Virus record (IMG/VR): IMGVR_UViG_3300031520_000003
Coordinates: 1-56,049 of that record
Source of the DNA: a virus
Strand: one strand, 5' to 3'
DNA: 56,049 nt
Shown piece after piece: positions 1-56,049 of the stretch. Position numbers and translations under genes: made by a program. The notes under the pieces are model-generated. The model made no database searches. It was given only the letters and a program-made list of their open reading frames with translations, and was not told the DNA's origin. Numbering within the stretch: position 1 is the stretch's first letter; each line of letters begins with the position of its first letter.

Positions 1-127
1 TCCAGAGCAGGGCTGATTGCCTCGTTGCCTCAGTGCGTCTTCTTCTGGCTGTTGCCTCAGCCCATTTTCTTGCGCATGCATTCCACACTCCCCTCCCAAC
101 AGCAGTGCGAGGAAAGCGCACTCTGCG
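1..127. repeat. Terminal direct repeat, copy 1 (circular-closure overlap)
   Basis: Bases 1-127 are identical base for base to 55923-56049. Confidence 0.95.
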
Positions 128-4833: not shown

Positions 4834-6099
4834 TTGAGAAGCCTCAACCTGTGGTATACTGGCTCTATAGGCTGTGCCCCTTGAGTTGCGAAGAACCCCT
4901 TTGATGGCCTGGTGGAAACAGCCTTGTTTTTGTTTCATGATCTTCCCCTTCATGATTTTCCCGAGGGACCTCGGGAACAGGTCATCGTCGAACGGACCGG
5001 TCACTATGGACGTGCTCTTGAGCAATTTCTGCACGAGCGAGGCATCACGATCTACGAGGTCCACCCACAAGAGCACACGTCGCGCAACAAAAGCGATAAG
5101 CGCGATGCACAGATGTTGGCAGCCCTCTTGTACAATCAGGTGGAGCGCGGTGTCTTGGTCACGGATGAAAACCAGATCGCCCGCAGGCTGGTGCCACCTC
5201 ATGAGACGGTGCAACTGCTGCAAGGTCTGGTCCAGCACCGATTGGAACTGGTTCGCGAGAGCACACAGCGCAAAAATAAGCTGACCGCCATCGCCGATGA
5301 ACTGTTTCCTGAATTGACCCAGGTCAATTCGGACCCCAACAGCCAGAGCGCGTTGGCACTCAGGAAACAGTATCCGTCCCCACAAGATATCGAGAAAGCA
5401 GCTCTCGACGCCTTGTGTGAGACGCGCCTGCATACGCGTCCAAGTCGCGCACATCTCGCAGAATTGCAAGACCTGGCACGCACGACGATTGGCACGAAAC
5501 ACCCATCCAGACGCACAAGCTTGCTTCTGGAGCAAAAGCAACTCATTGCCGAACTGCACTTGCTTCAAGAGCACCTGGACGTGTTGGAAGAGGAGATTGA
5601 AACCGCTCTGCACGAGAGTCGAGACGGACGAATCTTGCTCTCGTTTCCCACCATCGGGACGACGCAAGCCTCGATCATTTTGGCGCACATGGGCAACGTC
5701 GCCAACTATCCGCGTGCCTCGAAACTGCGTGGATATATGGGTTGGTCGCCTCACCAGCGACAGACAGGCACATCCACAGACAGCATGACCTTGACCAAGG
5801 GAGGCAATCCTCTGCTGAAGCAGACCATGTTCCTGGTCTCGCTCACCGCTATTCGGACGGATACGCAGTGGCGCACCCTCTACCACCGCCTGGTGCCGCG
5901 CATCTGCCAGTTCGACGAGCGAACCGGACGCTATAAAGGTCGCATGAAGGTGATCGGACGCATCGCGGGTCCGATGATCGGCCTGATCTATGTCCTGCTG
6001 AGAAAGGATTATGACCTGCTGGCTGCGCTTGCCGAGGGAGAGGACCCGCCGGAGCCGGAGGTGTACGAGCGGAGCAAACACCGCGTTCGTGGAAGCTAA
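4834..6099 (+). mobile_element. IS110-family element, degenerate copy (exact ends not determined)
   Basis: The transposase reading frame is open from TTG 4834 but is interrupted by TGA 4882-4884. It is inserted against the direction of the surrounding minus-strand operon. Confidence 0.6.
4912..6099 (+). CDS. IS110-family (DEDD) transposase, N-terminally truncated, probably defective
   Basis: VERTGHYG, KSDKRDAQMLA and the C-terminal SFPTIGTTQASIILAHMGNV...GGNPLLKQTMF motifs are present. The first catalytic G-I-D-V-x-K block is missing. Confidence 0.8.
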   Translation: METALFLFHDLPLHDFPEGPREQVIVERTGHYGRALEQFLHERGITIYEVHPQEHTSRNKSDKRDAQMLAALLYNQVERGVLVTDENQIARRLVPPHETVQLLQGLVQHRLELVRESTQRKNKLTAIADELFPELTQVNSDPNSQSALALRKQYPSPQDIEKAALDALCETRLHTRPSRAHLAELQDLARTTIGTKHPSRRTSLLLEQKQLIAELHLLQEHLDVLEEEIETALHESRDGRILLSFPTIGTTQASIILAHMGNVANYPRASKLRGYMGWSPHQRQTGTSTDSMTLTKGGNPLLKQTMFLVSLTAIRTDTQWRTLYHRLVPRICQFDERTGRYKGRMKVIGRIAGPMIGLIYVLLRKDYDLLAALAEGEDPPEPEVYERSKHRVRGS

Positions 6100-7370: not shown

Positions 7371-7399
7371 AGTATAGCAAAACGCTTCTCAAAAGTCAT
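7371..7399 (-). promoter_or_regulatory. sigma70-like promoter, leftward (ATGACT-N17-TGcTATACT)
   Basis: Read on the minus strand: -35 ATGACT (7394-7399), 17-nt spacer, extended -10 TGCTATACT (7371-7379). It lies upstream of 6482..7300. Confidence 0.5.
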
Positions 7400-7421
7400 G
7401 GAACATCTGTTTTCATGAAGA

Positions 7422-7441
7422 AATTGTAATCTTTTACAATT
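7422..7441. promoter_or_regulatory. Perfect palindrome AATTGTAA-N4-TTACAATT between the divergent early promoters (candidate operator)
   Basis: 8-bp arms at 7422-7429 and 7434-7441, read directly. Confidence 0.5.
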
Positions 7442-7464
7442 CACCCAAATCCGCACAAAAACGC

Positions 7465-7493
7465 TTGACAGTGACACGATGTCGTGATATACT
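7465..7493 (+). promoter_or_regulatory. sigma70-like promoter, rightward early operon (TTGACA-N17-TATACT)
   Basis: TTGACA 7465-7470 and TATACT 7488-7493, flanked by the inverted repeat CTTGACAGTG / CAGTGTCAAG (7464-7473 / 7513-7522). Confidence 0.65.
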
Positions 7494-9853: not shown

Positions 9854-10243
9854 ATGTTTGAAGGCATGGCTGTTCTGATGACAGCCTTCTACACCATCCA
9901 AGGCGACTATTTCGCCACAGTACGCATCAGTGGCGATAATGACCACGGGTTGAATCTCATCGTCCTGCATACGTCAGGTGCCAACACCGATGAGACCAAA
10001 GAATACAATTTCCTCGGTCACGAAGCCTCGCCCAAGATCGAGGTCGAGAACCGCGACATGCTGATTGTCCTCGCCAGGCGCACTGGCATCGTCGTGGCAA
10101 GCCAGGTCTACGAGGTCGATACTGGTGCAGTGCCACAAGGCTACTTGCTCATTCCGCGCGGAGGCTTCAACATCCTGTGTGAGCAAGATGAGCAGATGCG
10201 TGAGAGTGAGCTTTCGCCGGAGAAGGTGGAGGTGCAAGCGTGA
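9854..10243 (+). CDS. hypothetical protein
   Basis: 129-aa ORF with GAAGGGGG upstream of the ATG. Confidence 0.6.
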   Translation: MFEGMAVLMTAFYTIQGDYFATVRISGDNDHGLNLIVLHTSGANTDETKEYNFLGHEASPKIEVENRDMLIVLARRTGIVVASQVYEVDTGAVPQGYLLIPRGGFNILCEQDEQMRESELSPEKVEVQA

Positions 10244-14018: not shown

Positions 14019-14236
14019 ATCCGTGGCTCATTGGACTTGCTTTCGTTGGCGTTCTCTGTCTGCTGTATGGTTGGATCGTCATGATCGTACGCAGAAATCA
14101 TGCTCAGATGATGGCTGAGGTAGAAAGGAAGAATAGGCAGTTGATCCGTGAGCAGTTTCCGGCTTCCGACTATGAAAGCATGTATGAGAACCTGCTCAGT
14201 CATGCAGAAGAGGAGGCGGCGAAACTGCGTGCATAA
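14015..14236 (+). CDS. small single-pass membrane protein
   Basis: N-terminal TM segment LIGLAFVGVLCLLYGWIVMIV. Confidence 0.6.
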   Translation: MNPWLIGLAFVGVLCLLYGWIVMIVRRNHAQMMAEVERKNRQLIREQFPASDYESMYENLLSHAEEEAAKLRA

Positions 14237-15098
14237 TCCGCTTCATTGGCTCTATCAGCAATCGGGAGGGGTACTGCGCTCTGGGTGTGTCTCCTGCTAC
14301 TTGTGCGGCGGCACCTCGACAGAGACACACGCCGTTTCCAAGACGGTAGCCGATACCTTCAATTCCCACTATCTCGCACAGTGTCCCTCATCCTCGTGGG
14401 TGTGCGATGCCTGTGCATGGTATCTCGACAATAGTGGCGTGCATCCCGATTTCCGCAAAATGAGCCTCATCGTCCAACGCGACTCGTGGCAGAATTGGCA
14501 ACGTCCTACCATGAAACACGATGTGACGCAGTGGCTTACCTTTGGCCTTGATGGTGATGCCTACTTGGTTGTTTCGCTCTCCAAAAAGAAACATATCCTG
14601 ATGCAGGCACCGCTCAATGTCTCGTCAAGTCGAGATATAGCTGTTCAAGTCGAGGAAAACGTCGCATTCTTGTCCTTGTGGCAATGGGAAGCGATGGACG
14701 GACCGTTTCTGCGCTTGCTTGCGTTAGGACATGGCAAAGGGGAGATTCTTTCAGGCAATCTCTACGGTCAAACATTACGCAAGCATGGTCAACTCATGGA
14801 AGCGTTGCGGCTCAATCAGGAACTAGAGCCGTACCGCAAGAGTCCACAGATCGAGTTATTGAGTTACGTCACGATTGTGGAAGAAAGGACACAAGACGAT
14901 GATCGAGGAACAGGAACAACAGGCATTTCAGAGAGAGCTAGAACTGAGGCAAGTGGCGTCAGTGCTGCTAGGAGCCGTGTGGAAGAAGATCGACCCCGAG
15001 TACAAGAGCAAGTACCGAGCAGAGATTTGGCGGCAATTCGAGGAGAGGCTCCAGACCTCGGCACGGATTACGCCCAACTTGACCTCTTTTCTCAGTAA
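14229..15098 (+). CDS. csf1: Csf1-like (type IV Cas8-like) large subunit, zinc-finger N-terminus
   Basis: CVSCYLCGG...CPSSSWVCDAC Cys cluster; first gene of a Csf-type cluster. GTG 14229 lies 12 nt after GGAGG (alternative start ATG 14202; ORF open from 14148). Confidence 0.45.
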   Translation: MHNPLHWLYQQSGGVLRSGCVSCYLCGGTSTETHAVSKTVADTFNSHYLAQCPSSSWVCDACAWYLDNSGVHPDFRKMSLIVQRDSWQNWQRPTMKHDVTQWLTFGLDGDAYLVVSLSKKKHILMQAPLNVSSSRDIAVQVEENVAFLSLWQWEAMDGPFLRLLALGHGKGEILSGNLYGQTLRKHGQLMEALRLNQELEPYRKSPQIELLSYVTIVEERTQDDDRGTGTTGISERARTEASGVSAARSRVEEDRPRVQEQVPSRDLAAIRGEAPDLGTDYAQLDLFSQ

Positions 15099-15291
15099 GT
15101 TCTGTACTCTGTTTCAGGTCGCTGAGATTGGGATCGATGCCGATGAACGCCTAGAGGTTGAACGCATCTTAGCAGGCGGGTACGGCAATCCAGACGACAT
15201 TTTGTACGGCTTGCGTCGGGACCCGCAAGTGTGTGTCTTGTTGTTGAGAAATCGGTTAGATGAGGAGAAAGTCAATGCAGGCTACAAGTAG
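14899..15291 (+). CDS. cas11: Cas11-like small subunit (tentative)
   Basis: About 130 aa and helix-type (EEQEQQAFQRELELRQ...), lying between the large subunit and the Cas7-like gene. Overlaps the csf1-like 3' end out of frame. Confidence 0.35.
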   Translation: MIEEQEQQAFQRELELRQVASVLLGAVWKKIDPEYKSKYRAEIWRQFEERLQTSARITPNLTSFLSKFCTLFQVAEIGIDADERLEVERILAGGYGNPDDILYGLRRDPQVCVLLLRNRLDEEKVNAGYK

Positions 15292-16219
15292 TTATCGATT
15301 TGAGGGGATCGCACGCGCTCTGAGTGCGGTCTCGCATCTGGGGGAGAGCACAGGCGGCACCACCGCCATTTTCCGACGCGAGAAAGTCTGTGCAGGTGGG
15401 CGTGTAATCGAGGTGCCTATCCTCTCAGGCAATGCCTTTCGGGGACAACTCAGAGACACGGGTATGCGTTTCATGCTGAGGGAATTAGGTGATCCTCAGC
15501 TTTCCCCTCCTGCGTTCCACTTCCTGACATCGGGAGGCGCACTCACCAAAGACAGTGGACGTGGACTTGACATCGGACAGGCGCGCCGTTTACAAGCGTT
15601 GATTCCACTGGTGGGTGTCTTTGGCGGTGCGTGTGGACGCCAAATCCTTCCAGGCAAACTGCAAGTCGGTAAGTGGTATCCCGTGTGTCAGGAGCTTGTT
15701 GATCTCTTGCCACAGAAGTATCACCAGGAGGACCTGGTGAGCATCTACGACTTGACCGATCTTCACAGCTTTACCCGTACCGATGATGCCAAATCTGAGA
15801 AATGGCAAAAGTTCTTGCCACAAGAGCAGAGAAGCCTGTTAGAGGCTCCCAAGACAAAGACAGCCAAAGATGGGACAGAAGTTGCAGACAAGCCAGGCGT
15901 GGCGCAACAAATGCGCTACTCCCAGGAGGTGCTGATCGCAGGAACGCGCTTCTCCTGTTGGCTTCAACTGCAAGATGTGACCGATCTCGAGTACGAAGCG
16001 TTTGCCTCGGCTCTGATCGAATGGAGTAAGGCTCCCTTTGTCGGGGGACAATCTCGACATGGCTGCGGCGAGGTCGAGTTGCGCTTTGACAACTGGATGA
16101 GCATATCTCCTCTCGCGCGTGATGAGAAAGGGGTCGGATTACCTCTTGGCACGGCGTATCATGACCATTTGCAGACACAGCGTGAAGCTATTCTCGATGC
16201 GCTCAAGGAGATCGCGTGA
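15275..16219 (+). CDS. csf2: Csf2-like Cas7-family RAMP protein
   Basis: VPILSGNAFRGQLRD, LTSGGAL and the C-terminal Gly loop VGGQSRHGCGEV. ATG 15275 follows GAGGAGAAAG. Confidence 0.6.
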   Translation: MQATSSYRFEGIARALSAVSHLGESTGGTTAIFRREKVCAGGRVIEVPILSGNAFRGQLRDTGMRFMLRELGDPQLSPPAFHFLTSGGALTKDSGRGLDIGQARRLQALIPLVGVFGGACGRQILPGKLQVGKWYPVCQELVDLLPQKYHQEDLVSIYDLTDLHSFTRTDDAKSEKWQKFLPQEQRSLLEAPKTKTAKDGTEVADKPGVAQQMRYSQEVLIAGTRFSCWLQLQDVTDLEYEAFASALIEWSKAPFVGGQSRHGCGEVELRFDNWMSISPLARDEKGVGLPLGTAYHDHLQTQREAILDALKEIA

Positions 16220-16980
16220 TGGATCAGCCCATGCGGATTATCGCGTACCTTGCTGGTTCCATTGCGCTCGCCCGTCCTGAAGACCTGGCCCTTGATGGAC
16301 TGCTTGCCTATCAGGTGCTCCGCAAGCATTTCGGCTCTGACTTCTACACGTTGCCAGACCCCAAAGACGTGCTGTACTTTGCCCGCCTCCCACTCGAGAT
16401 GCGTGGTGCTCCTGATGCGTCTGTAGAACGTCTGCAGACGGGCGAGGTCTGGTACCATCGTGGACAGGGCATTGCGGATGAGAGCCTGTGGTACTGGGCG
16501 TGTTCCTCGGCACAAATCGAGGTCAAGGGACGTGACACACAGTATTGGAACAAGCGTTTTGATACGCAGGCATCGCTCTCGGACCGGATTGATTTCGGGG
16601 GGCGTGTCGAGAAAATCTTGATTGAGCAAGGTCGCTACAAAGCCTATCATATGCCCCTTCCTACGCTTGTTACAGACAAGGTGACGTGGTATGCCTATGG
16701 GGATATGGAAGCAGTTGCCGATGTGCTCATTGCGATCGTGGCGATGGGCAAAAAAAGAGTGCAGGGGAACGGACATGTTTTGCGGTGGGAGATCACACCA
16801 ATGGATGAGGATTATTCGCTCTGGCATGATGATCGTCTCATGCGCCCCGTCCCAGGTCCGCTTCTGCGGGGCATACAGTGGGATATTCCGTTCAATCTTC
16901 AGCACAGTGCGTTTCGCGCTCCACAATGGCACGCAGCCAATCAAGCACTGTGCGTGGTTGGAGGCAAGAGGCATGCGTGA
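16219..16980 (+). CDS. csf3: Csf3-like Cas5-family RAMP protein
   Basis: N-terminal LALDGLLAYQV and C-terminal Gly loop GKKRVQGNGHV. TGATG coupling to csf2, with AAGGAG upstream. Confidence 0.5.
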   Translation: MDQPMRIIAYLAGSIALARPEDLALDGLLAYQVLRKHFGSDFYTLPDPKDVLYFARLPLEMRGAPDASVERLQTGEVWYHRGQGIADESLWYWACSSAQIEVKGRDTQYWNKRFDTQASLSDRIDFGGRVEKILIEQGRYKAYHMPLPTLVTDKVTWYAYGDMEAVADVLIAIVAMGKKRVQGNGHVLRWEITPMDEDYSLWHDDRLMRPVPGPLLRGIQWDIPFNLQHSAFRAPQWHAANQALCVVGGKRHA

Positions 16981-17722
16981 CATGGAACGGTTCCAACACG
17001 AATTGTACGCAACGTTCCCAGCATTTCAGCGCAAGGTGGAGCAAGCGCAAAGACTGGTTGAGGATGCTTTGCAGCAGATGAGCCGTCCGTATATCGCCAC
17101 CAGTAGCGGCAAGGACTCGTGTGTGACCTCTCACCTGGTCTGGTCTGTCAATCCTGATGTGCCTGGCGTCTACTTTGATGCCGATTGCGCGTTCCCTGAG
17201 ACGCGAGACTACTTCGAGAGGCTTTCACGCCATCGTACGATCATCACGTGGAAGACGGAGCCACTGCTGGATACCTTTGCACGGTGCGGCGGTCCTACGG
17301 CTCCTGGTATCGGCAACGCGACGATGGAGAGCACCGTGTACGCTCCTCTTCGCTCACTCTTCGCTGAGTATCATTTTGACGGCGTGTTCTTGGGACTGCG
17401 AGCACAGGAGAGCGAGGGACGGTCCAAGAGTGCGCAATTCCACGGCTCGCTGTACCGATACAAGCGAGATGGTGTGTTGCGCTGCTTGCCTGTTGCCACG
17501 TGGACGCATCAAGATATTTGGGCGTATATCGTCAGTCGCAACCTGGACTATAACCGTGTCTATGACACGATGCAGGACATGCCGATTGCAGATAGACGCG
17601 TGTCCTATTGGGCAGGTGAGACAAAGAGACGTTGGGGAAGATGGACGTTTTTGAAGAAGCACTATCCTGATCTCTGGAACCGATTTGCTGAGAGATTCCC
17701 TGAAGTGCGAGAATATGTATGA
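16973..17722 (+). CDS. cysH: PAPS reductase / CysH-like PP-loop enzyme
   Basis: PP-loop motif SSGKDS. ...FLGLRAQESEGR... is typical of the PAPS_reduct family. ATG 16973 lies 9 nt after GGAGG and overlaps the csf3 stop. Confidence 0.8.
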   Translation: MRDMERFQHELYATFPAFQRKVEQAQRLVEDALQQMSRPYIATSSGKDSCVTSHLVWSVNPDVPGVYFDADCAFPETRDYFERLSRHRTIITWKTEPLLDTFARCGGPTAPGIGNATMESTVYAPLRSLFAEYHFDGVFLGLRAQESEGRSKSAQFHGSLYRYKRDGVLRCLPVATWTHQDIWAYIVSRNLDYNRVYDTMQDMPIADRRVSYWAGETKRRWGRWTFLKKHYPDLWNRFAERFPEVREYV

Positions 17723-21159: not shown

Positions 21160-22503
21160 ATGAGTAATACACATCAAACGAGCCCCTTGACAGACAGAGA
21201 GCGGTTTCTCTTGAACATTCTCATTCTCAACCTTCCCGAATGGGAGGTCACACAGATTGATGAAGATGAGGACGATTACGTGATTACAGCACGTCCGTCC
21301 TCGTCTCTCTCTATCTGCCCCTTCTGCGGATATGATACTCTCTACAAGCATGGCGACCTTGAGCAACACATCCGCGATGTGCCAAGTCATGGCAAGCGCG
21401 TGCTGATTCAGGTGACCCGTCAACGCTATCGGTGCAAACACTGCACGAAAACGAGTTTTGAGACGTTGCCTGACATTGATGAGAAACGGTTCTGCACCAA
21501 GCGGCTCATTACGTTCTTGCAACGACGATCCATGAATGATGATCGCACGTTTCTCTCCCTGGCGGAAGAAACTGGCCTCCATGAAAAAACGGTTCGTCGT
21601 ATCTTTCACGATTATGTTCTTGAGTTAGAACGTTCAACGCATTTTGCAACACCCCGAATCATGGGCATGGATGAACTCCATGTTATCCACCAGCCACGAG
21701 CGATTATTACCAATATTGAGAGAAACACGGTAGTTGAGTTCCTGGCAGACCGCAAAAAACAAACGATCATCCGGTATCTTTCGAGTGTGCCAGATCGTGA
21801 ACACATAGCTCTCGTGTGCATCGACATGTGGCAGCCGTACCGTGAGGCCGTGAGAGAAGTCTTGCCGCACGCAATCATTGTGATTGATAAGTTCCATGCC
21901 GTAAAATTAGCGAATCAAGCGATGGAAGTTGTCCGAAAAGAGGTTCGCGCTAGCCTCACGGAAAAACAACGTCGAACGCTCATACATGATCGCTTCTTGT
22001 TGCTCAAGCGAGAAAGCGAGTTAAAGGAAAAAGAACGATTGACGCTGGAAGCATGGACGGGCAGCTTCCCAACGCTCAAAAAAGCGTATGACCTCAAGGA
22101 AGCGTTCTATGAGATATGGGATGCTCCTGATAAAGATGAGGCACATCAACGCTACTTTGCATGGCAGGAGCAAATTACACCAGAGGTTACTAGTGCCTTT
22201 ACACCTATTGCTTTAACCGTCGAAGAATGGGGCGATGAAATCTTTGCCTACTTCGATCATCGCATTACTAACGCCTACACGGAATCACTCAATGGTTTAG
22301 CAAGGGTCGCGAATCGATTGGGTAGGGGGTACTCTTTTCAGGTATTACGGGCAAGATTACTCTACGGAATAGGCCAGCATCGGCGACGAAAAGCAAAAGT
22401 GTCGAATGTGGAATCGGACTCTGAGGGAGTGGCCCTGTCCACACTCGAACAATCTGTTCTGGATTCGGGTTTAGAGACCAAAAACACGGTAGAAGCCGAA
22501 TAA
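21160..22503 (+). CDS. ISL3-family transposase
   Basis: N-terminal zinc-finger pattern CPFCG...YRCKHC, then the DDE_Tnp_ISL3-type core (IDMWQPY, VIDKFH, TNAYTESLNG). Confidence 0.9.
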   Translation: MSNTHQTSPLTDRERFLLNILILNLPEWEVTQIDEDEDDYVITARPSSSLSICPFCGYDTLYKHGDLEQHIRDVPSHGKRVLIQVTRQRYRCKHCTKTSFETLPDIDEKRFCTKRLITFLQRRSMNDDRTFLSLAEETGLHEKTVRRIFHDYVLELERSTHFATPRIMGMDELHVIHQPRAIITNIERNTVVEFLADRKKQTIIRYLSSVPDREHIALVCIDMWQPYREAVREVLPHAIIVIDKFHAVKLANQAMEVVRKEVRASLTEKQRRTLIHDRFLLLKRESELKEKERLTLEAWTGSFPTLKKAYDLKEAFYEIWDAPDKDEAHQRYFAWQEQITPEVTSAFTPIALTVEEWGDEIFAYFDHRITNAYTESLNGLARVANRLGRGYSFQVLRARLLYGIGQHRRRKAKVSNVESDSEGVALSTLEQSVLDSGLETKNTVEAE

Positions 22504-48594: not shown

Positions 48595-49959
48595 CTAATA
48601 GCCTCTATAGTTGTTCAGGTCGGTCACAAGATCACTGTCGAGCTCTGCCATTTCTCCCAATCCTGCGTCAACATGAGCCACGGCATACCGAGCGGTATCG
48701 AGTGCGTGGTTATTCTCGTCCACCGGAACTTCCTTCACAGGCTTTCCGTCTTTGGCTTGCGGCCACACGTAGGCGTCGATCTCCTGCTCAAAACAGTACG
48801 GCTTGTGCGCCTGCTCTAAGGTCTCATCGCGCTCGCGAAGTGCATATTCGTAGACACAGAAGCGCGGGCGTCCATCTGGGCAGGGCTTCAGTCTGGTCGC
48901 GAGATAATTGATACCTGGCACAATCTCGTTTGATGCCCCTTTCGCATGAAGCCCATGCGTGTTGAATTGCTGAATATAGGCGGGTTCCGATGGATCACAC
49001 GCCCAATGCTCAATGCCGAATTCCTGCGTGAGCAGGTGTGCTTGCGCAATCCACCAATCAATCGTGCGCTTTGTGCGATAGACCTCACACAGCTGATACA
49101 TCCTGCCATCGTAATCAATGGCGTAGACCTGCAAGCAGCCAGGATTGGTATAGCCCCAGTCCGCAGCACCGAGCACGTGACGAACCGCTGTGCGATTGAG
49201 TGAACCATTGGAGTACAGGATGTTCCATGCAACGAGGTGTGCGTGCGTGACCAGGTGAACAGGACGATTCCATTCTTCATAGACAAGTCCTTCAGCAGCC
49301 GCCCATCGTCCCAGATAATAGCGTTCATAACGCACGCCTGTCAGTGCCTTCAAGCGTGCTAATCGTTCTGGTGTGATCGAAGGGTTATCTTCATGACGAC
49401 TCTGGAGCATTTTTGTGCTCCCCCGATCACAGCGACGCTTGAGCCAGTGCGTTGGCGGACCAGGATTGCAGTCGCCCAGCAATTGCTGATACGGCATCGC
49501 CCCATTCCGCAGGCGCATACCCAGGATTTCCCAATCATTCTCGTTCAGTTCTGTCGCTTCCTGCGGATAGATCATGTCCCATTCTGAAGACAGCACTTTT
49601 TCGGCGTTATCCATGCCGCCAACGGCAAGAATGGAGCCATTGGGATATTCGTATTGCTGCTCTGTCGTATTGAAGCGAATCAGCTTGCCGAGCCAGCCGT
49701 GTGGAAGCACTTTCTTTTCATACGTCACCATTGCCGTTTGGCTGAGACTTGTTCGCGTCTTACGCACCATCAGGAGGCGAGCATTGGGATATTTGTCGGC
49801 GCAGTAATGCAGTTTCTCCAGGATACTTCTGCTCTTGCCCGTGTCAGCAGGTCCACAGAGGAGCAACTCAGGACGACGCGAACGCCATGCGAGACGCGAT
49901 GCGCCAAAGGGTTGGTAGGGAGCGCGTTCCTTTGGCCGTGAAAGCACAGCAGACGTCAT
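48595..49959 (-). CDS. terL: terminase large subunit
   Basis: Walker A LLLCGPADTGKS, ATPase and nuclease halves, 454 aa. Confidence 0.9.
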   Translation of the reverse strand: MTSAVLSRPKERAPYQPFGASRLAWRSRRPELLLCGPADTGKSRSILEKLHYCADKYPNARLLMVRKTRTSLSQTAMVTYEKKVLPHGWLGKLIRFNTTEQQYEYPNGSILAVGGMDNAEKVLSSEWDMIYPQEATELNENDWEILGMRLRNGAMPYQQLLGDCNPGPPTHWLKRRCDRGSTKMLQSRHEDNPSITPERLARLKALTGVRYERYYLGRWAAAEGLVYEEWNRPVHLVTHAHLVAWNILYSNGSLNRTAVRHVLGAADWGYTNPGCLQVYAIDYDGRMYQLCEVYRTKRTIDWWIAQAHLLTQEFGIEHWACDPSEPAYIQQFNTHGLHAKGASNEIVPGINYLATRLKPCPDGRPRFCVYEYALRERDETLEQAHKPYCFEQEIDAYVWPQAKDGKPVKEVPVDENNHALDTARYAVAHVDAGLGEMAELDSDLVTDLNNYRGY

Positions 49960-50459
49960 AGCTCCTCCTCAATTCCGTCATCATCGGGCGTGTTGATGTA
50001 TTCTTTGGGAGTCGTGGTCACGTTGAGAGTTGCGCTCTTGTCGCGGAACTCTGGCATGCGAGACTTGGCAAGGAGTGCTAAGAGGCTATCACTATACTTG
50101 GGCACAGTAAGAGGCTCATCATTGTGGTAGACAATCTTGCCCATACTCGTGACAAATTCATCTACTCCGTCGATGGCACGTCGCTTCATTTCGGCACGTA
50201 TCACATCATCAGCATCGGCGCGAGCTTGATGGTATTGGAACGAGAATTCCTGATCGTGTTCTTGCCACTCGTAGACCGTTGAGCGATGAATACCAGCAAC
50301 CTGACACGCATCTTTGATGGTGACGCACTCAGCTAATGCCTCCAAAAACGCATGTTGTGCAGCTTTGCGTTTCCGTGGTTTCAATGGCCCTGACTTGCGT
50401 GTGGGAGGTGTCGGAATGTCGGAATTCACGCTCAATTCTTCCTTCTTAGTGTTCCCCAA
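49956..50459 (-). CDS. terS: terminase small subunit (HTH)
   Basis: HTH IKDACQVAGIHRSTVYEW. Overlaps the terL start. Confidence 0.75.
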   Translation of the reverse strand: MGNTKKEELSVNSDIPTPPTRKSGPLKPRKRKAAQHAFLEALAECVTIKDACQVAGIHRSTVYEWQEHDQEFSFQYHQARADADDVIRAEMKRRAIDGVDEFVTSMGKIVYHNDEPLTVPKYSDSLLALLAKSRMPEFRDKSATLNVTTTPKEYINTPDDDGIEEEL

Positions 50460-50946: not shown

Positions 50947-51318
50947 TTACCCAAAAAAGCCGCAGAAGACGGTGCCTTGTGGCAACGCAGGCAGTGGCAC
51001 GATATACACAAAGCGTTGTGTCGCCTGATTGACGATCTGTGTCACGGTAGCGCGTTGCTGCACCAGTGTTCGCATGATTGAGCGAGACAGAGGCTCCAGG
51101 TCCTCTTCCGCGATGAACAGATATTTGGGGTCGGCGTCATGCTGGGCGTACAGTGTGGCGAACACCTCTTGTACGGACTCACACGTGACCTCTGGCAGCG
51201 TCACCATCGCGCTGTGGTAATCGCCAATGGTGTGCTGATCGGCGAGTTTCTGTGCAAGCATCTTGCGCGTCACCATCGGATATTCTGCTACATCTGTCTT
51301 TCGGTTGATGATCGTCAT
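50947..51318 (-). CDS. hypothetical protein
   Basis: ATG 51318 follows GGAGGAAGG-N6. The ORF stays open to GTG 51426 through the duplicated repeat. Confidence 0.55.
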   Translation of the reverse strand: MTIINRKTDVAEYPMVTRKMLAQKLADQHTIGDYHSAMVTLPEVTCESVQEVFATLYAQHDADPKYLFIAEEDLEPLSRSIMRTLVQQRATVTQIVNQATQRFVYIVPLPALPQGTVFCGFFG

Positions 51319-51407
51319 ATCAATCCTTCCTCCTGTCCAATCGGCTGTCCTGGTCTCCGTGATCGAGACCGTCTTTCGGTTGATGATCGTCATATCAATC
51401 CTTCCTC
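51296..51407 (-). CRISPR. Candidate mini-array: 37-bp repeat, 38-bp spacer, 37-bp repeat
   Basis: GTCTTTCGGTTGATGATCGTCATATCAATCCTTCCTC occurs perfectly at 51296-51332 and 51371-51407. The 38-bp insert matches tail-fibre bases 33652-33689 at 32/38 positions. Confidence 0.4.
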
Positions 51408-51472
51408 GGCCCGTGAATGCCGCCACGTCTTTCCCTGCCTTCCCTTCCTTCGTATCGAAAGGTGCCTGAAGA

Positions 51473-51517
51473 AAGACAAAAACGGCATTCGACTCCTACG
51501 AAGGAATCGAACGCCGT
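51473..51517 (-). terminator. Rho-independent terminator, minus-strand specific
   Basis: A 16-bp stem with a 4-nt loop (51482-51517). The two non-Watson-Crick positions are G-U on the minus-strand RNA but A-C on the plus-strand RNA. A U-run follows on the minus strand. Confidence 0.7.
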
Positions 51518-52108
51518 TAATCGTTTGCCGTCACTGGCACGTTCACAGATGTTTCAAACCCGATACGGGAAGCTGGGATGGAGGATGCCTTGTGTTCGTC
51601 ATCCTACCCTGATGGAATGCGTATCATGCAGAAGCATTCCATCCTCATCACCTGCATTGCGAAACGGATCCGCACAACACAAGGCTTTTCCTGCTCCATA
51701 TGGAGCAAGCTGGCTTTCCTCCTCGCCAGGACACTTTCAACAATTGGGTATGCTCAGAGTATAGCACACACAAGACGAATCAGGAAGCTTCGTGCTGCTC
51801 TGGAAACAGAGGGACCGTCATGAACCCCATGCCTAAAGGCGAGGGGCTTGTGTCTGGACTCCACTTCAACTCTCTTGAGCAGAATGCCTCAAGAGCTTCA
51901 GTTTCACGGTCCGACACATCAAGGCACCATGACAAGGTACCTGTCCTTTCTCAGCAGAGCGGTCAAGCTACTTCCGAAAAAGGAACGTTGTTCGACCAAG
52001 AACATTTTACCTTCGCGTGGATTTCCGCGAAGAACGCCTTATGTTCAATTATCAAAGAACCATGAGGAAAACTGTCTCTCTCTGGCGAACCAGAGTGTCT
52101 TACCCTCA
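51518..52108 (-). ncRNA. Candidate ~600-nt structured non-coding transcript / late-operon leader
   Basis: Bounded by a consensus promoter and a terminator. The track lists no minus-strand ORF of 60 aa or more here. Several perfect hairpins are present (52080-52095, 52011-52032, 51611-51643). Confidence 0.4.
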
Positions 52109-52114
52109 GGACAG

Positions 52115-52143
52115 AGTATAGCACATTGACATCTCGGTGTCAA
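52115..52143 (-). promoter_or_regulatory. Consensus sigma70 promoter, leftward (TTGACA-N17-TGcTATACT)
   Basis: Minus strand: TTGACA (52138-52143), 17-nt spacer, TATACT (52115-52120) preceded by TGC. Confidence 0.7.
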
Positions 52144-52154
52144 GCGTGTATCAT
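52126..52154 (+). promoter_or_regulatory. sigma70-like promoter, rightward (TTGACA-N17-TATCAT), leaderless start
   Basis: TTGACA 52126-52131 and TATCAT 52149-52154. ATG 52161 lies only 6 nt after the -10 box. Confidence 0.6.
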
Positions 52155-52160
52155 GGCACT

Positions 52161-52337
52161 ATGAGAAAGAAACAAGCTAATGCAACAACAATTCGACTTG
52201 AACTCGCAGATCGAGAAGCGATTGCACACATCCGAGAACTCTACGGATGTTCGTCTGATAGTGCAGCAATCAAACTCGCAGTACGCATGGTGGCAAGACA
52301 AGAGCTACCTACACGCGCCATTCCTCCTCGTGACTAG
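52161..52337 (+). CDS. ribbon-helix-helix (CopG/Arc-like) DNA-binding protein
   Basis: TIRLELADREAIAHIRELYGCSSDSAAIKLAVRMVA fits a beta-strand plus two helices. The ORF is open from 52137. Confidence 0.6.
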   Translation: MRKKQANATTIRLELADREAIAHIRELYGCSSDSAAIKLAVRMVARQELPTRAIPPRD

Positions 52338-52579
52338 AAGTCAGGGGCATCCTGGCGCGACCTGGTGAAATCCCGTCGCCATTGGTCGGGCATGAAGGAG
52401 GTGAGCCATCGAACGGGTCCGATCCGACCCTTCTCGACGCGAGCCGTCAGCTCTGCATAGCCCCCGTTACGCCGCTTAATGTAGCCAATTTCTCGATCCA
52501 GCCACTTGACCCAGGTTGGCGAGAGATGCTTGAGTTTGATCGCTGCATGCCGATCTGTGTCGTCTGTAGATGTCCCCAT
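52334..52579 (-). CDS. hypothetical protein
   Basis: 81-aa ORF, convergent with the RHH gene. Confidence 0.5.
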   Translation of the reverse strand: MGTSTDDTDRHAAIKLKHLSPTWVKWLDREIGYIKRRNGGYAELTARVEKGRIGPVRWLTSFMPDQWRRDFTRSRQDAPDF

Positions 52580-52803
52580 GCCTTGTCTCCCTGCCGTTGA
52601 ACAAATGTGCTACTCTTTCATAAAACGAATGGTACTGCTTGCTTGTAACAGCTTTCCTCGATCACGCACATCGAGACCGCGCGACCAAAGCGGGACTCTT
52701 GTCCTATTGGTGTCCTGATTGACGATTCAGATGATCTCATTTCTTCGTTGGTTCGTATGAGTTGGTACAGGGGGAATTCGCAAAGGGGCACAGAGAGACA
52801 CAC

Positions 52804-52847
52804 AAAGACGCTCGTGAAAGGATGGTTCTTTCACGAGCGTCTTTTTT
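52804..52847. terminator. Strong hairpin terminator (17-bp stem), T-run on the plus side
   Basis: AAAGACGCTCGTGAAAG-gatggtt-CTTTCACGAGCGTCTTT followed by TTT. Overlaps the stop of 52846..53079. Confidence 0.6.
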
Positions 52848-53079
52848 ACGTGCCATGTGCTGATCGTGCGTCTGCTTGATACTGCTGATCGAGGTCAAGC
52901 CATGCATCGTGGATCATGGCTTGGACAAGGCTTTTTCCTGTGGCATCTGGTTGGACCAGCCTTCGCTGTCCAACCAGAATCGCTAACTCACGCGCCGATT
53001 CTCCATCGAGAAACAGGCGTTGACGGAGGCGACCTGCACCAGTGCGAGGACCTCCGCTCCGATGTTTCTGTCCAGTCAT
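52846..53079 (-). CDS. hypothetical protein
   Basis: 77-aa ORF. Confidence 0.45.
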   Translation of the reverse strand: MTGQKHRSGGPRTGAGRLRQRLFLDGESARELAILVGQRRLVQPDATGKSLVQAMIHDAWLDLDQQYQADARSAHGT

Positions 53080-55922: not shown

Positions 55923-56049
55923 TCCAGAGCAGGGCTGATTGCCTCGTTGCCTCAGTGCGTCTTCTTCTGGCTGTTGCCTCAGCCCATTTTCTTGCGCATG
56001 CATTCCACACTCCCCTCCCAACAGCAGTGCGAGGAAAGCGCACTCTGCG
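55923..56049. repeat. Terminal direct repeat, copy 2 (circular-closure overlap)
   Basis: Identical to bases 1-127. Confidence 0.95.

Follow-up and report, generated by a model that had tools for sequence, protein, structure and literature searches.

What is encoded in an interval that begins with a consensus promoter, ends with a strong terminator, holds no evident gene and lies just ahead of the packaging genes of a phage? The question is posed by positions 51473-52146, read on the minus strand, of IMG/VR record IMGVR_UViG_3300031520_000003, the whole of which (positions 1-56,049; 56,049 nt) is called the window here. The window is a circular phage contig of ~55.9 kb, whose ends overlap by ~127 nt and which is identical to ENA ERZ27247748 k141_413917. 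When the interval was first considered from its letters alone (the sequence-only reading), it was taken as one unit of ~600 nt of structured RNA, either an antitermination leader for the late genes or a discrete noncoding RNA (ncRNA). The computational analysis described here leads, with moderate confidence, to another view, in which the interval consists of two juxtaposed transcription units, a cassette and a resident leader, and is not one RNA gene. Each of the two earlier proposals then fits one half of the interval, but a single 600-nt unit for the whole does not stand.

The 548-bp cassette and the strain that lacks it

The main evidence is a polymorphism between strains, which involves three features of the window:

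51817-52364, both strands: portable cassette of 548 bp (ribbon-helix-helix gene, back-to-back promoters, RNA gene), missing in a 98-99% identical strain
52334-52579, minus strand: gene for 81 aa, upstream of the cassette, which supplies the final 9 codons
51780-51816, minus strand: orphaned original 3' end of the 81-aa gene (…VPLFPEQHEAS, stop), seen by strain comparison

The 81-aa protein has an 83-aa sibling in its 90% cluster, which is encoded on a 29-kb contig (L050, from Logan SRR22405847). On either flank this contig is 98-99% identical to the window, and it is without exactly 52364-51817: its position 10215 aligns to window position 52365 and its position 10214 to window position 51818, the junction being ambiguous by a 2-nt AC microhomology, and a target-site duplication is absent. 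The missing 548-bp block comprises the promoter of the supposed RNA (P1), the first ~290 nt of that RNA and a plus-strand gene at 52161-52337. The upstream gene records the same event, in that the 83-aa variant (P0123) ends in ...RRDFTVPLFPEQHEAS and the window protein in ...RRDFTRSRQDAPDF; the upstream open reading frame (ORF) of L050 reads across the junction to finish as ...VPLFPEQHEAS. A further contig from a different sample (L016) is 100% identical to the window and has the cassette.

Two further viral contigs also contain the cassette, as do contigs that look bacterial, and a promoter pair of the cassette type is kept beside close homologues of the ribbon-helix-helix (RHH) protein in the bacterial-looking L051-L055 and L056, in L057, and in the viral contigs L060/L084 and L088. 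One of these, L084, is a relative of the window phage that carries homologues of the 81-aa gene, of a 123-aa gene and of terS in the same order. In L060/L084, the cassette is placed ~1.1 kb upstream of the 81-aa gene homologue and is inverted, so that its RNA is directed away from terS and the late genes, while the neighbouring genes are otherwise syntenic with the window. In L088 the cassette RNA runs opposite to all of its neighbours. The RHH-side end of the cassette is not conserved between loci, and the L055 and L051 sequences diverge immediately after the RHH stop codon. When IMG/VR was scanned with the P1 core pattern, 2 true loci were recovered among 33, and scans of the same collection with loop, outer-stem and 3'-end patterns gave chance matches only.

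Since the cassette is missing from a near-identical strain and inverted in a related phage, its RNA cannot be an intrinsic leader of the late genes; by these comparisons, the cassette is a discrete unit that moves. In two bacterial-looking contigs (L051 3997-5966; L055 1-420), it sits after a 259-aa LAGLIDADG-like gene and before a gene for a metallo-beta-lactamase fold, and no LAGLIDADG remnant is present in the window interval.

The RHH gene, the promoter pair and the cassette RNA

Within the cassette and the RNA directed from it, the following features can be placed:

52126-52154, plus strand: RHH-gene promoter, TTGACA-N17-TATCAT, overlapping P1 back to back
52115-52143, minus strand: P1, TTGACA-N17-(TGTGC)TATACT, promoter of the cassette RNA, inside 15-nt block TGTCAATGTGCTATA
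52161-52337, plus strand: apparently leaderless gene for a 58-aa RHH protein, putative repressor of the promoter pair, missed by gene callers on this contig
51817-52108, minus strand: cassette RNA gene of ~292 nt, with a 5' hairpin (52095-80), a two-tier stem-loop, and a conserved 3' hairpin and tail
52080-52095, minus strand: hairpin CTCTGG-TTCG-CCAGAG, read from the sequence
52011-52032, minus strand: hairpin CTTCGCG-N8-CGCGAAG, read from the sequence
52000-52046, minus strand: two-tier stem-loop, outer stem GAACAU/AUGUUC, inner stem CUUCGCG/CGCGAAG, loop GAAAUCCA
51817-51850, minus strand: conserved 3' end CAAG-CCCCUCGCC-UUUA-GGCAUGGGG-UUCAUGAC, with no U-run; -15.4 kcal/mol

Every feature named in the sequence-only reading was recovered at, or within a few bases of, the place first given for it, including all four of its perfect hairpins (two listed above, two in the resident leader below). 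P1 is as described there (TTGACA-N17-TATACT with a TG extension at 52143-52115, an 11/12 match); sites of the form TTGACA-N15-19-TATACT occur three times in the window against an expectation of 0.03 by chance. The same reading had, however, dismissed the plus-strand ORFs as compositional noise, which is wrong for 52161-52337. The 58-aa product of this gene, which starts MRKKQANATTIRLELADREAIAHIRELYG..., has 48 homologues at E<=1e-3 in an exhaustive HMMER search, three of them 82-88% identical, and their alignment shows a clear family; no match to the gene was found in phage and plasmid databases. In Pfam, RHH_1 matches 7 of 38 family members weakly (best E 2e-4), and VapB, RelB and ParD also match weakly. 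An AlphaFold model (pLDDT 82) places helices at residues 15-28 and 33-48 behind an extended TTIRL segment, and the nearest PDB folds to this model are ParD2, VapB11, NikR and MazE-mt1, with E values (>0.4) that are not significant for so short a chain. As judged from sequence and model, then, the protein has what defines an RHH protein of the Arc/MetJ/CopG type, namely an N-terminal beta-strand, two helices, and similarity in family and fold. The distance from the end of the -10 hexamer to the RHH ATG is exactly 6 nt in six loci, with intervening bases that vary, and for this reason the RHH mRNA appears to be leaderless.

The -35 hexamers of the two promoters form TTGACA-N6-TGTCAA. The core of the RHH promoter is conserved in L051, L056, L057, L060 and L088, and the 15-nt core TGTCAATGTGCTATA is invariant across six loci despite RHH proteins that are only 56-88% identical; this core is a candidate operator for the RHH protein. 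A 14-mer at P1 recurs exactly at the second promoter of the interval, P2 (51768-51755 = 52125-52112), and by analogy the P2 copy could be a second operator: for the RHH regulator Aca14, repression of two promoters, that of its own gene and a neighbouring one, by way of a single motif over the -10 element has been described (PMC13551039).

The cassette RNA has homologues downstream of a homologous promoter in L060, L088, L051, L056, L057 and L332. Across the family, the outer stem of the two-tier motif has 6-7 bp and the inner stem 6-8 bp; the 5' internal loop has GUU at its end, the 3' internal loop is GUAA(A), and the hairpin loop contains AAAUC or AAAAC. In the window the 5' internal loop ends in GUU and the 3' one is GUAAA. 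When a covariance model was built from four loci with the window left out, its best hit in the whole window, on both strands, fell at the expected place (52060-51998; 13.4 bits, E 0.34), which by our own estimate corresponds to E roughly 1e-3 when scaled to the ~300 nt downstream of P1. The L088 sequence, which was not in the model, scores 79.6 bits. Covariation, proposed in the sequence-only reading as a check on structure, is found for this motif: in the model-derived alignment 98.6% of cells are paired, 8 of the 13 pairs are changed on both sides, and the inner stem covaries in 6 of 6 pairs, whereas none of 500 shuffles was as good and slid controls reached at most 57% pairing. A manual alignment that includes the window outer stem has all 72 of its 72 cells canonical on the P1 strand, with 11 of 12 pairs double-changed. 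Five of its pairs are G-U on the P1 strand and would be C-A mismatches on the opposite strand; therefore, the P1 transcript is taken as the functional strand. The 3' end forms a CCCC...GGGG hairpin with a compensatory swap between the window (GCC/GGC) and L060 (GGC/GCC); the corresponding hairpin of L088 is CCCCUGCA/UGCAGGGG, and L332 shares AGACACAAGC-hairpin-GUUCNUGAC. The window tail finishes exactly at the cassette boundary, 51817.

Folding energy points to structure in both halves of the interval. For the 636-nt stretch the folding energy is -251.6 kcal/mol (z -7.2), and its 5' and 3' halves have z scores of -4.5 and -4.1, compared with a mean of -0.76 (sd 1.46) for 280-nt windows across the whole window, 1.5% of which fall below -4. 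The plus strand of the stretch is nearly as structured (z -6.9), and therefore folding energy alone cannot assign the strand; as both strands score alike, a choice of strand by total folding energy was rejected. A comparison of the 5' and 3' halves revealed no similarity beyond the 14-mer.

Protein coding within the RNA finds no support. The sequence-only reading noted a scarcity of minus-strand ORFs, and none longer than 53 aa exists between 51426 and 52334. A homology check for a coding gene within the RNA interval, which that reading had also proposed, found none conserved by Pfam, protein search or cross-family frames, and no peptide is conserved across the RNA family in any frame. Candidate antisense targets of the RNA in the phage reach 14 nt at most, and none rises above the chance level. 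Rfam 15 has no match at gathering threshold in the whole window, with local searches at E<=10 returning sub-threshold matches only; nothing was returned for L088, and in L055-L057 the one hit, to a snoRNA (E 0.98), lies outside the RNA. Among the sub-threshold matches is HEARO, the IscB guide RNA, on the plus strand at 51817-52010 (17 bits, E 0.22, against a gathering score of 83). This match starts at the cassette boundary, and its alignment covers only the terminal GUCA...CCCC..UAAA..GGGGCUUG hairpin. An identity with HEARO was considered and rejected, given the sub-threshold score, the lack of a hit in L088, a plus-strand ORF that encodes the 58-aa RHH protein where an IscB (HNH/RuvC) ORF would be expected, and G-U pairs that favour the opposite strand. 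With the motif found downstream of P1 and divergent from the RHH gene in six loci, the cassette RNA is, by sequence comparison, an RNA family new to Rfam and linked to an RHH gene.

These features suggest how the cassette (52364-51817) might work. The leaderless RHH gene on the plus strand and the ~290-nt RNA from P1 on the minus strand would be expressed from the overlapping promoter pair, and an RHH dimer bound to the invariant core over both promoters would set its own level and that of the RNA. The RHH protein might also act on the identical 14-mer at P2. The RNA would then be the cargo of the unit, a trans-acting accessory with a moron-like function. In this strain, P1 transcripts would probably continue as far as the terminator of the resident leader, giving a species of ~630 nt, because the 3' hairpin of the cassette RNA has no U-run. 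A bolder form of this proposal, which we hold tentatively and think unlikely as it stands, is that the cassette represents a new class of mobile, self-regulated module with a ~290-nt RNA effector (an anti-defence decoy or an addiction RNA), exchanged between phages and bacteria by precise insertion and excision without target duplication.

The resident leader and the late operon

Downstream of the cassette lie the features of the second unit (51768-51481) and the packaging genes:

51755-51768, minus strand: P2, box TGTGCTATACTCTG with an extended -10 (TATACT 51763-51758) and a poor -35, in both strains
51481-51751, minus strand: resident structured leader of ~270 nt ending in a terminator; z -4.1, identical in the cassette-less strain
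51693-51706, minus strand: hairpin GCTCC-ATAT-GGAGC (first placed at 51691-51704), read from the sequence
51611-51643, minus strand: hairpin GATGGAATGC-N13-GCATTCCATC, read from the sequence
51471-51518, minus strand: intrinsic terminator with a 17-bp stem, loop UCGU, then UUUUUGUCUUU; -30.3 kcal/mol, z -7.8
49956-50459, minus strand: terS, just downstream of the studied interval
48595-49959, minus strand: terL, just downstream of the studied interval

Between 51816 and 51481, only two substitutions, both near the junction, distinguish the two strains. The second TGCTATACT box that the sequence-only reading had reported is present within 51768-51755, where it belongs to P2; the -35 of P2 fails the criteria of the promoter scan. 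The strand-specific terminator of that reading is also present, with a stem (51518-51481) of 17 bp rather than 16, two G-U among its pairs, and a following U-run, TTTTTGTCTTT; it is the strongest in the region. No sigma-70-like promoter with a match of at least 10/12 was found between the terminator and terS. On the same strand, farther upstream, a promoter with a 12/12 match and a TG extension (53458-53430) directly follows a 10-bp terminator (53540-53516), and a second long-stem terminator, a perfect 17-bp hairpin with a U-rich tail, lies at 52843-52800 (-27.9 kcal/mol). The latter is directly 3' of a 77-aa gene and is followed by ~220 nt without an ORF and then by the 81-aa gene; of all 280-nt windows in the phage, 52740-53019 has the strongest structure (z -7.6).

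The layout of serial terminators fits a temporal control by terminator read-through. P2, the ~270-nt leader and the terminator would form a unit that separates the small middle genes from the operon for packaging and structure, and the late genes would be expressed only when transcription passes this terminator, through antitermination or some comparable process. Judged by position, the resident leader and its terminator plausibly gate the late operon.

Could the whole interval nevertheless be a single ~630-nt leader from P1 to the terminator, that is, an antitermination unit of the lambdoid PR'-tR' type, or a put-like one, for the late operon? The consensus promoter, the strong terminator and the lack of another promoter before terS would all be explained, and the three serial long-stem terminators (53540, 52843 and 51518) suggest antitermination control. 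We consider a single leader improbable, however, since P1 and the first 290 nt are dispensable, being missing from a near-identical strain, since the same RNA is directed away from the late genes in a related phage, and since no family match to a Q-like or other antiterminator was found among the upstream genes. No put-like element was returned by the Rfam searches, in which no put model was included, and nothing ties the hairpins to put.

It should be noted that several points weigh against the division into a regulated cassette and a gating leader. The copy of the motif in the window is weak (13.4 bits; E 0.34 for the window as a whole), its outer stem was aligned by hand, and the family is small, with six distinct instances of the motif and three to four full-length RNAs. 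Apart from the two -35 hexamers, the core shows no consistent inverted repeat, and RHH binding is a prediction; likewise, the transcription starts, the RNA 3' end and the read-through are predicted. As GCTATACT boxes are frequent in the strong promoters of these phages, the identity of the P1 and P2 14-mers may be partly mere promoter consensus. For the resident leader, no antiterminator gene was found, the upstream proteins (of 81, 77 and 83 aa, and beyond) being without a Pfam or PHROG hit. In addition, the leader has no homologue by blastn, nhmmer or tblastx in 46 loci with a related TerL, and it is absent from the related phage L060; because of this, its role is argued from position.

The 46 loci were drawn from viral, metagenome and genome collections, and the same three programs found no DNA homology to the interval in them; none was found in GenBank phages either. 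Apart from one 98% strain variant, the nearest TerL relatives are at most 71% identical, and all are without the region. Searches with the downstream 123-aa protein and with a plus-strand 121-aa ORF recovered nothing but the query proteins. As TerL relatives occur in metagenome-assembled genomes of Chloroflexia and Thermomicrobiales, the host is probably a member of the Chloroflexota. The closest IMG/VR relative (L002, TerL 71% identical) has an ORF-free stretch of its own (L002 3330-4180), ~700 nt in length and located upstream of the late genes. A promoter (TTGCAA-N17-TATACT), a short hairpin, a gene for 73 aa and a terminator are found in it, none of them similar in sequence to the window leader.

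Some further observations concern the genome at large. Window positions 1-127 are a copy of 55923-56049, which gives a circular assembly of ~55,922 bp. An exact 37-bp direct repeat occurs at 51296-51332 and 51371-51407, its copies 75 bp apart; each copy covers the start of the 123-aa gene, with its Shine-Dalgarno (SD) sequence, ATG and first 8 codons, a GGTCTC-N7-GAGACC hairpin lies in the 38-bp spacer, and assemblies of the variant strain break at the repeat. Transposase genes of the IS110 (4912-6099, plus strand) and ISL3 (21160-22503, plus strand) families lie inside the phage genome, and around the IS110 copy L050 has a transposase of 433 aa, versus 391-395 aa, and an additional 147-aa gene. 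Divergent promoters at 7371-7493 (TTGACA-N17-TATACT on the plus strand, 7465-7493; ATGACT-N17-TATACT on the minus strand, 7399-7371) probably are the origin of two long opposing transcription units.

Other accounts of the cassette and known systems

The conserved hairpins might instead act as DNA; the cassette would then be a nonautonomous, single-strand transposable element like IS200/IS605 or another kind of recombination unit, with subterminal hairpins recognised by a transposase in trans and with incidental transcription. Much about its ends agrees with this: the presence or absence is clean, with no target duplication and a microhomology of only 2 nt; a conserved subterminal hairpin lies 8 nt from one end; the weak plus-strand HEARO hit begins exactly at boundary 51817; and the cassette is found at different places and in different orientations. 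Yet the covarying two-tier motif is internal and not terminal, a near-consensus promoter faces this motif in all loci, and the HEARO score is far under the gathering score of 83, with no hit in L088. Furthermore, the cassette has no TnpA, TnpB or IscB gene, and its RHH-side end differs between loci. There is thus little probability, in our estimate, that the element acts as DNA, as little as for the single leader.

An addiction module of the toxin-antitoxin kind, in which the RNA or a peptide encoded by it is harmful and is restrained by the RHH repressor, is quite unlikely, despite the resemblance of the RHH protein, in its nearest folds and Pfam matches, to the VapB, ParD, RelB and MazE antitoxins. 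RHH proteins are typical antitoxins, and a small, self-contained, mobile unit with a very strong promoter would suit such a module. A toxin gene is not adjacent, however, the RNA contains no conserved small ORF and no repeats like those of type III antitoxins, and it has no antisense target above chance in the phage.

That the interval encodes small proteins is very improbable. The candidates are a plus-strand ORF of 81 aa at 51820-52065, distinct from the upstream gene, and short minus-strand ORFs, for example those of 28 and 34 aa with SD-like sequences. The first was called by gene callers on two contigs, and its codon score (0.00) is like that of the real RHH gene (-0.01; possibly foreign DNA). 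Codon scores of the ORFs in the interval do not exceed 0.01, compared with 0.26 +/- 0.14 for real genes and -0.21 +/- 0.17 for wrong-frame stretches. However, among 5.8 billion proteins the 81-aa product matches only itself, it has no Pfam hit, and the ORF begins at the cassette boundary with no space for a ribosome-binding site. In addition, the RNAs of L060, L088, L332 and L051 have no common reading frame, and tblastx returned nothing.

The sequence-only reading suggested the RNA as a possible ligand of the Csf complex. Scarcely any credence can be given to a role as the natural ligand or guide of the array-less type IV-B-like Csf complex encoded at ~14-17.7 kb: although the phage has a Csf3-like gene and a PAPS-reductase gene with no CRISPR array seen nearby, and although type IV-B complexes are not known to have a native RNA partner, the cassette-bearing loci (1-14 kb per locus) contain no Csf or PAPS-reductase homologue, the bacterial copies stand in unrelated contexts, and the RNA has no repeat-like sequence and is linked to the RHH gene and not to csf. 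At 14148-17722 (plus strand) the Csf3-like gene (a weak Pfam hit) adjoins the PAPS-reductase (CysH-like) gene, in a layout that resembles type IV-B.

The two-unit interpretation, with an accessory cassette and a resident leader, carries a caution for other genomes, in that a "long ncRNA" seen in one genome may in fact be an accessory insertion that happens to lie beside a resident leader. It also yields a structured RNA family beyond Rfam, whose members come from bacteria and from little-studied phages with probable Chloroflexota hosts. The genetic partner of this RNA is clear, since a dedicated RHH regulator stands on a conserved promoter pair, and the relationship is directly testable; strains with the cassette (ERZ27247748 / SRR8416121) and without it (SRR22405847) exist as natural controls.

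How does this arrangement compare with known systems? Lambdoid late operons have a constitutive promoter, a short terminated RNA and the antiterminator Q, as in PR', 6S RNA and tR' of lambda. In phage HK022, a cis-acting put RNA, made of two stem-loops (~70 nt) just downstream of the promoter, modifies RNA polymerase. The resident leader, and only this unit, is like PR'-6S-tR' in having a promoter, a noncoding RNA of a few hundred nucleotides and a strong terminator before the packaging and structural genes, with no other late promoter. Unlike the lambda system, it shows no Q-family gene and no Q-binding element, the -35 of P2 is poor, and the leader is not conserved in related phages. Thus, of the features of a Q-dependent late leader, a promoter and an intrinsic terminator upstream of the late operon are found (P1, P2, and 51518-51481), but an adjacent upstream gene of the Q family is not, nor is the leader a conserved component integral to that operon.

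The cassette RNA resembles GOLLD, ROOL and HEARO of Rfam, which are also long, structured, ORF-free RNAs of phages or mobile elements with unknown function. It differs from them in that it has no Rfam 15 match at threshold, is shorter, and is tied to a dedicated RHH gene.

The cassette can also be compared with the immI region of phage P22, where the RHH repressors Mnt and Arc, the overlapping promoters Pant and Pmnt, and the sar RNA are found together; sar is a 69-nt antisense RNA that targets ant mRNA. In both cases, an RHH gene is divergent from a strong promoter by way of overlapping, back-to-back promoters, a small RNA is part of the module, and the region is an accessory regulatory one in the late part of the phage genome. 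However, the RNA described here is ~290 nt long and is what the divergent promoter itself produces, no complementary target could be detected for it, and there is no antirepressor gene.

A further parallel is with the acr-aca anti-defence modules that use an RHH regulator, as exemplified by Aca14 (PMC13551039). Like the cassette, these are portable accessory units of phages and mobile elements with a small RHH regulator and a strong promoter, and in both a conserved motif covers the -10 and is found again at the promoter next to it. They are unlike in that the cargo here is a structured RNA and not a protein, the regulator is divergent rather than in the same operon, and no consistent inverted repeat has been defined; an anti-defence activity of the cassette would be hypothetical. 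If the RNA is indeed the cargo of a mobile regulatory cassette, the logic of a regulator plus its cargo, as known from acr-aca modules and morons, would extend from proteins to RNAs.

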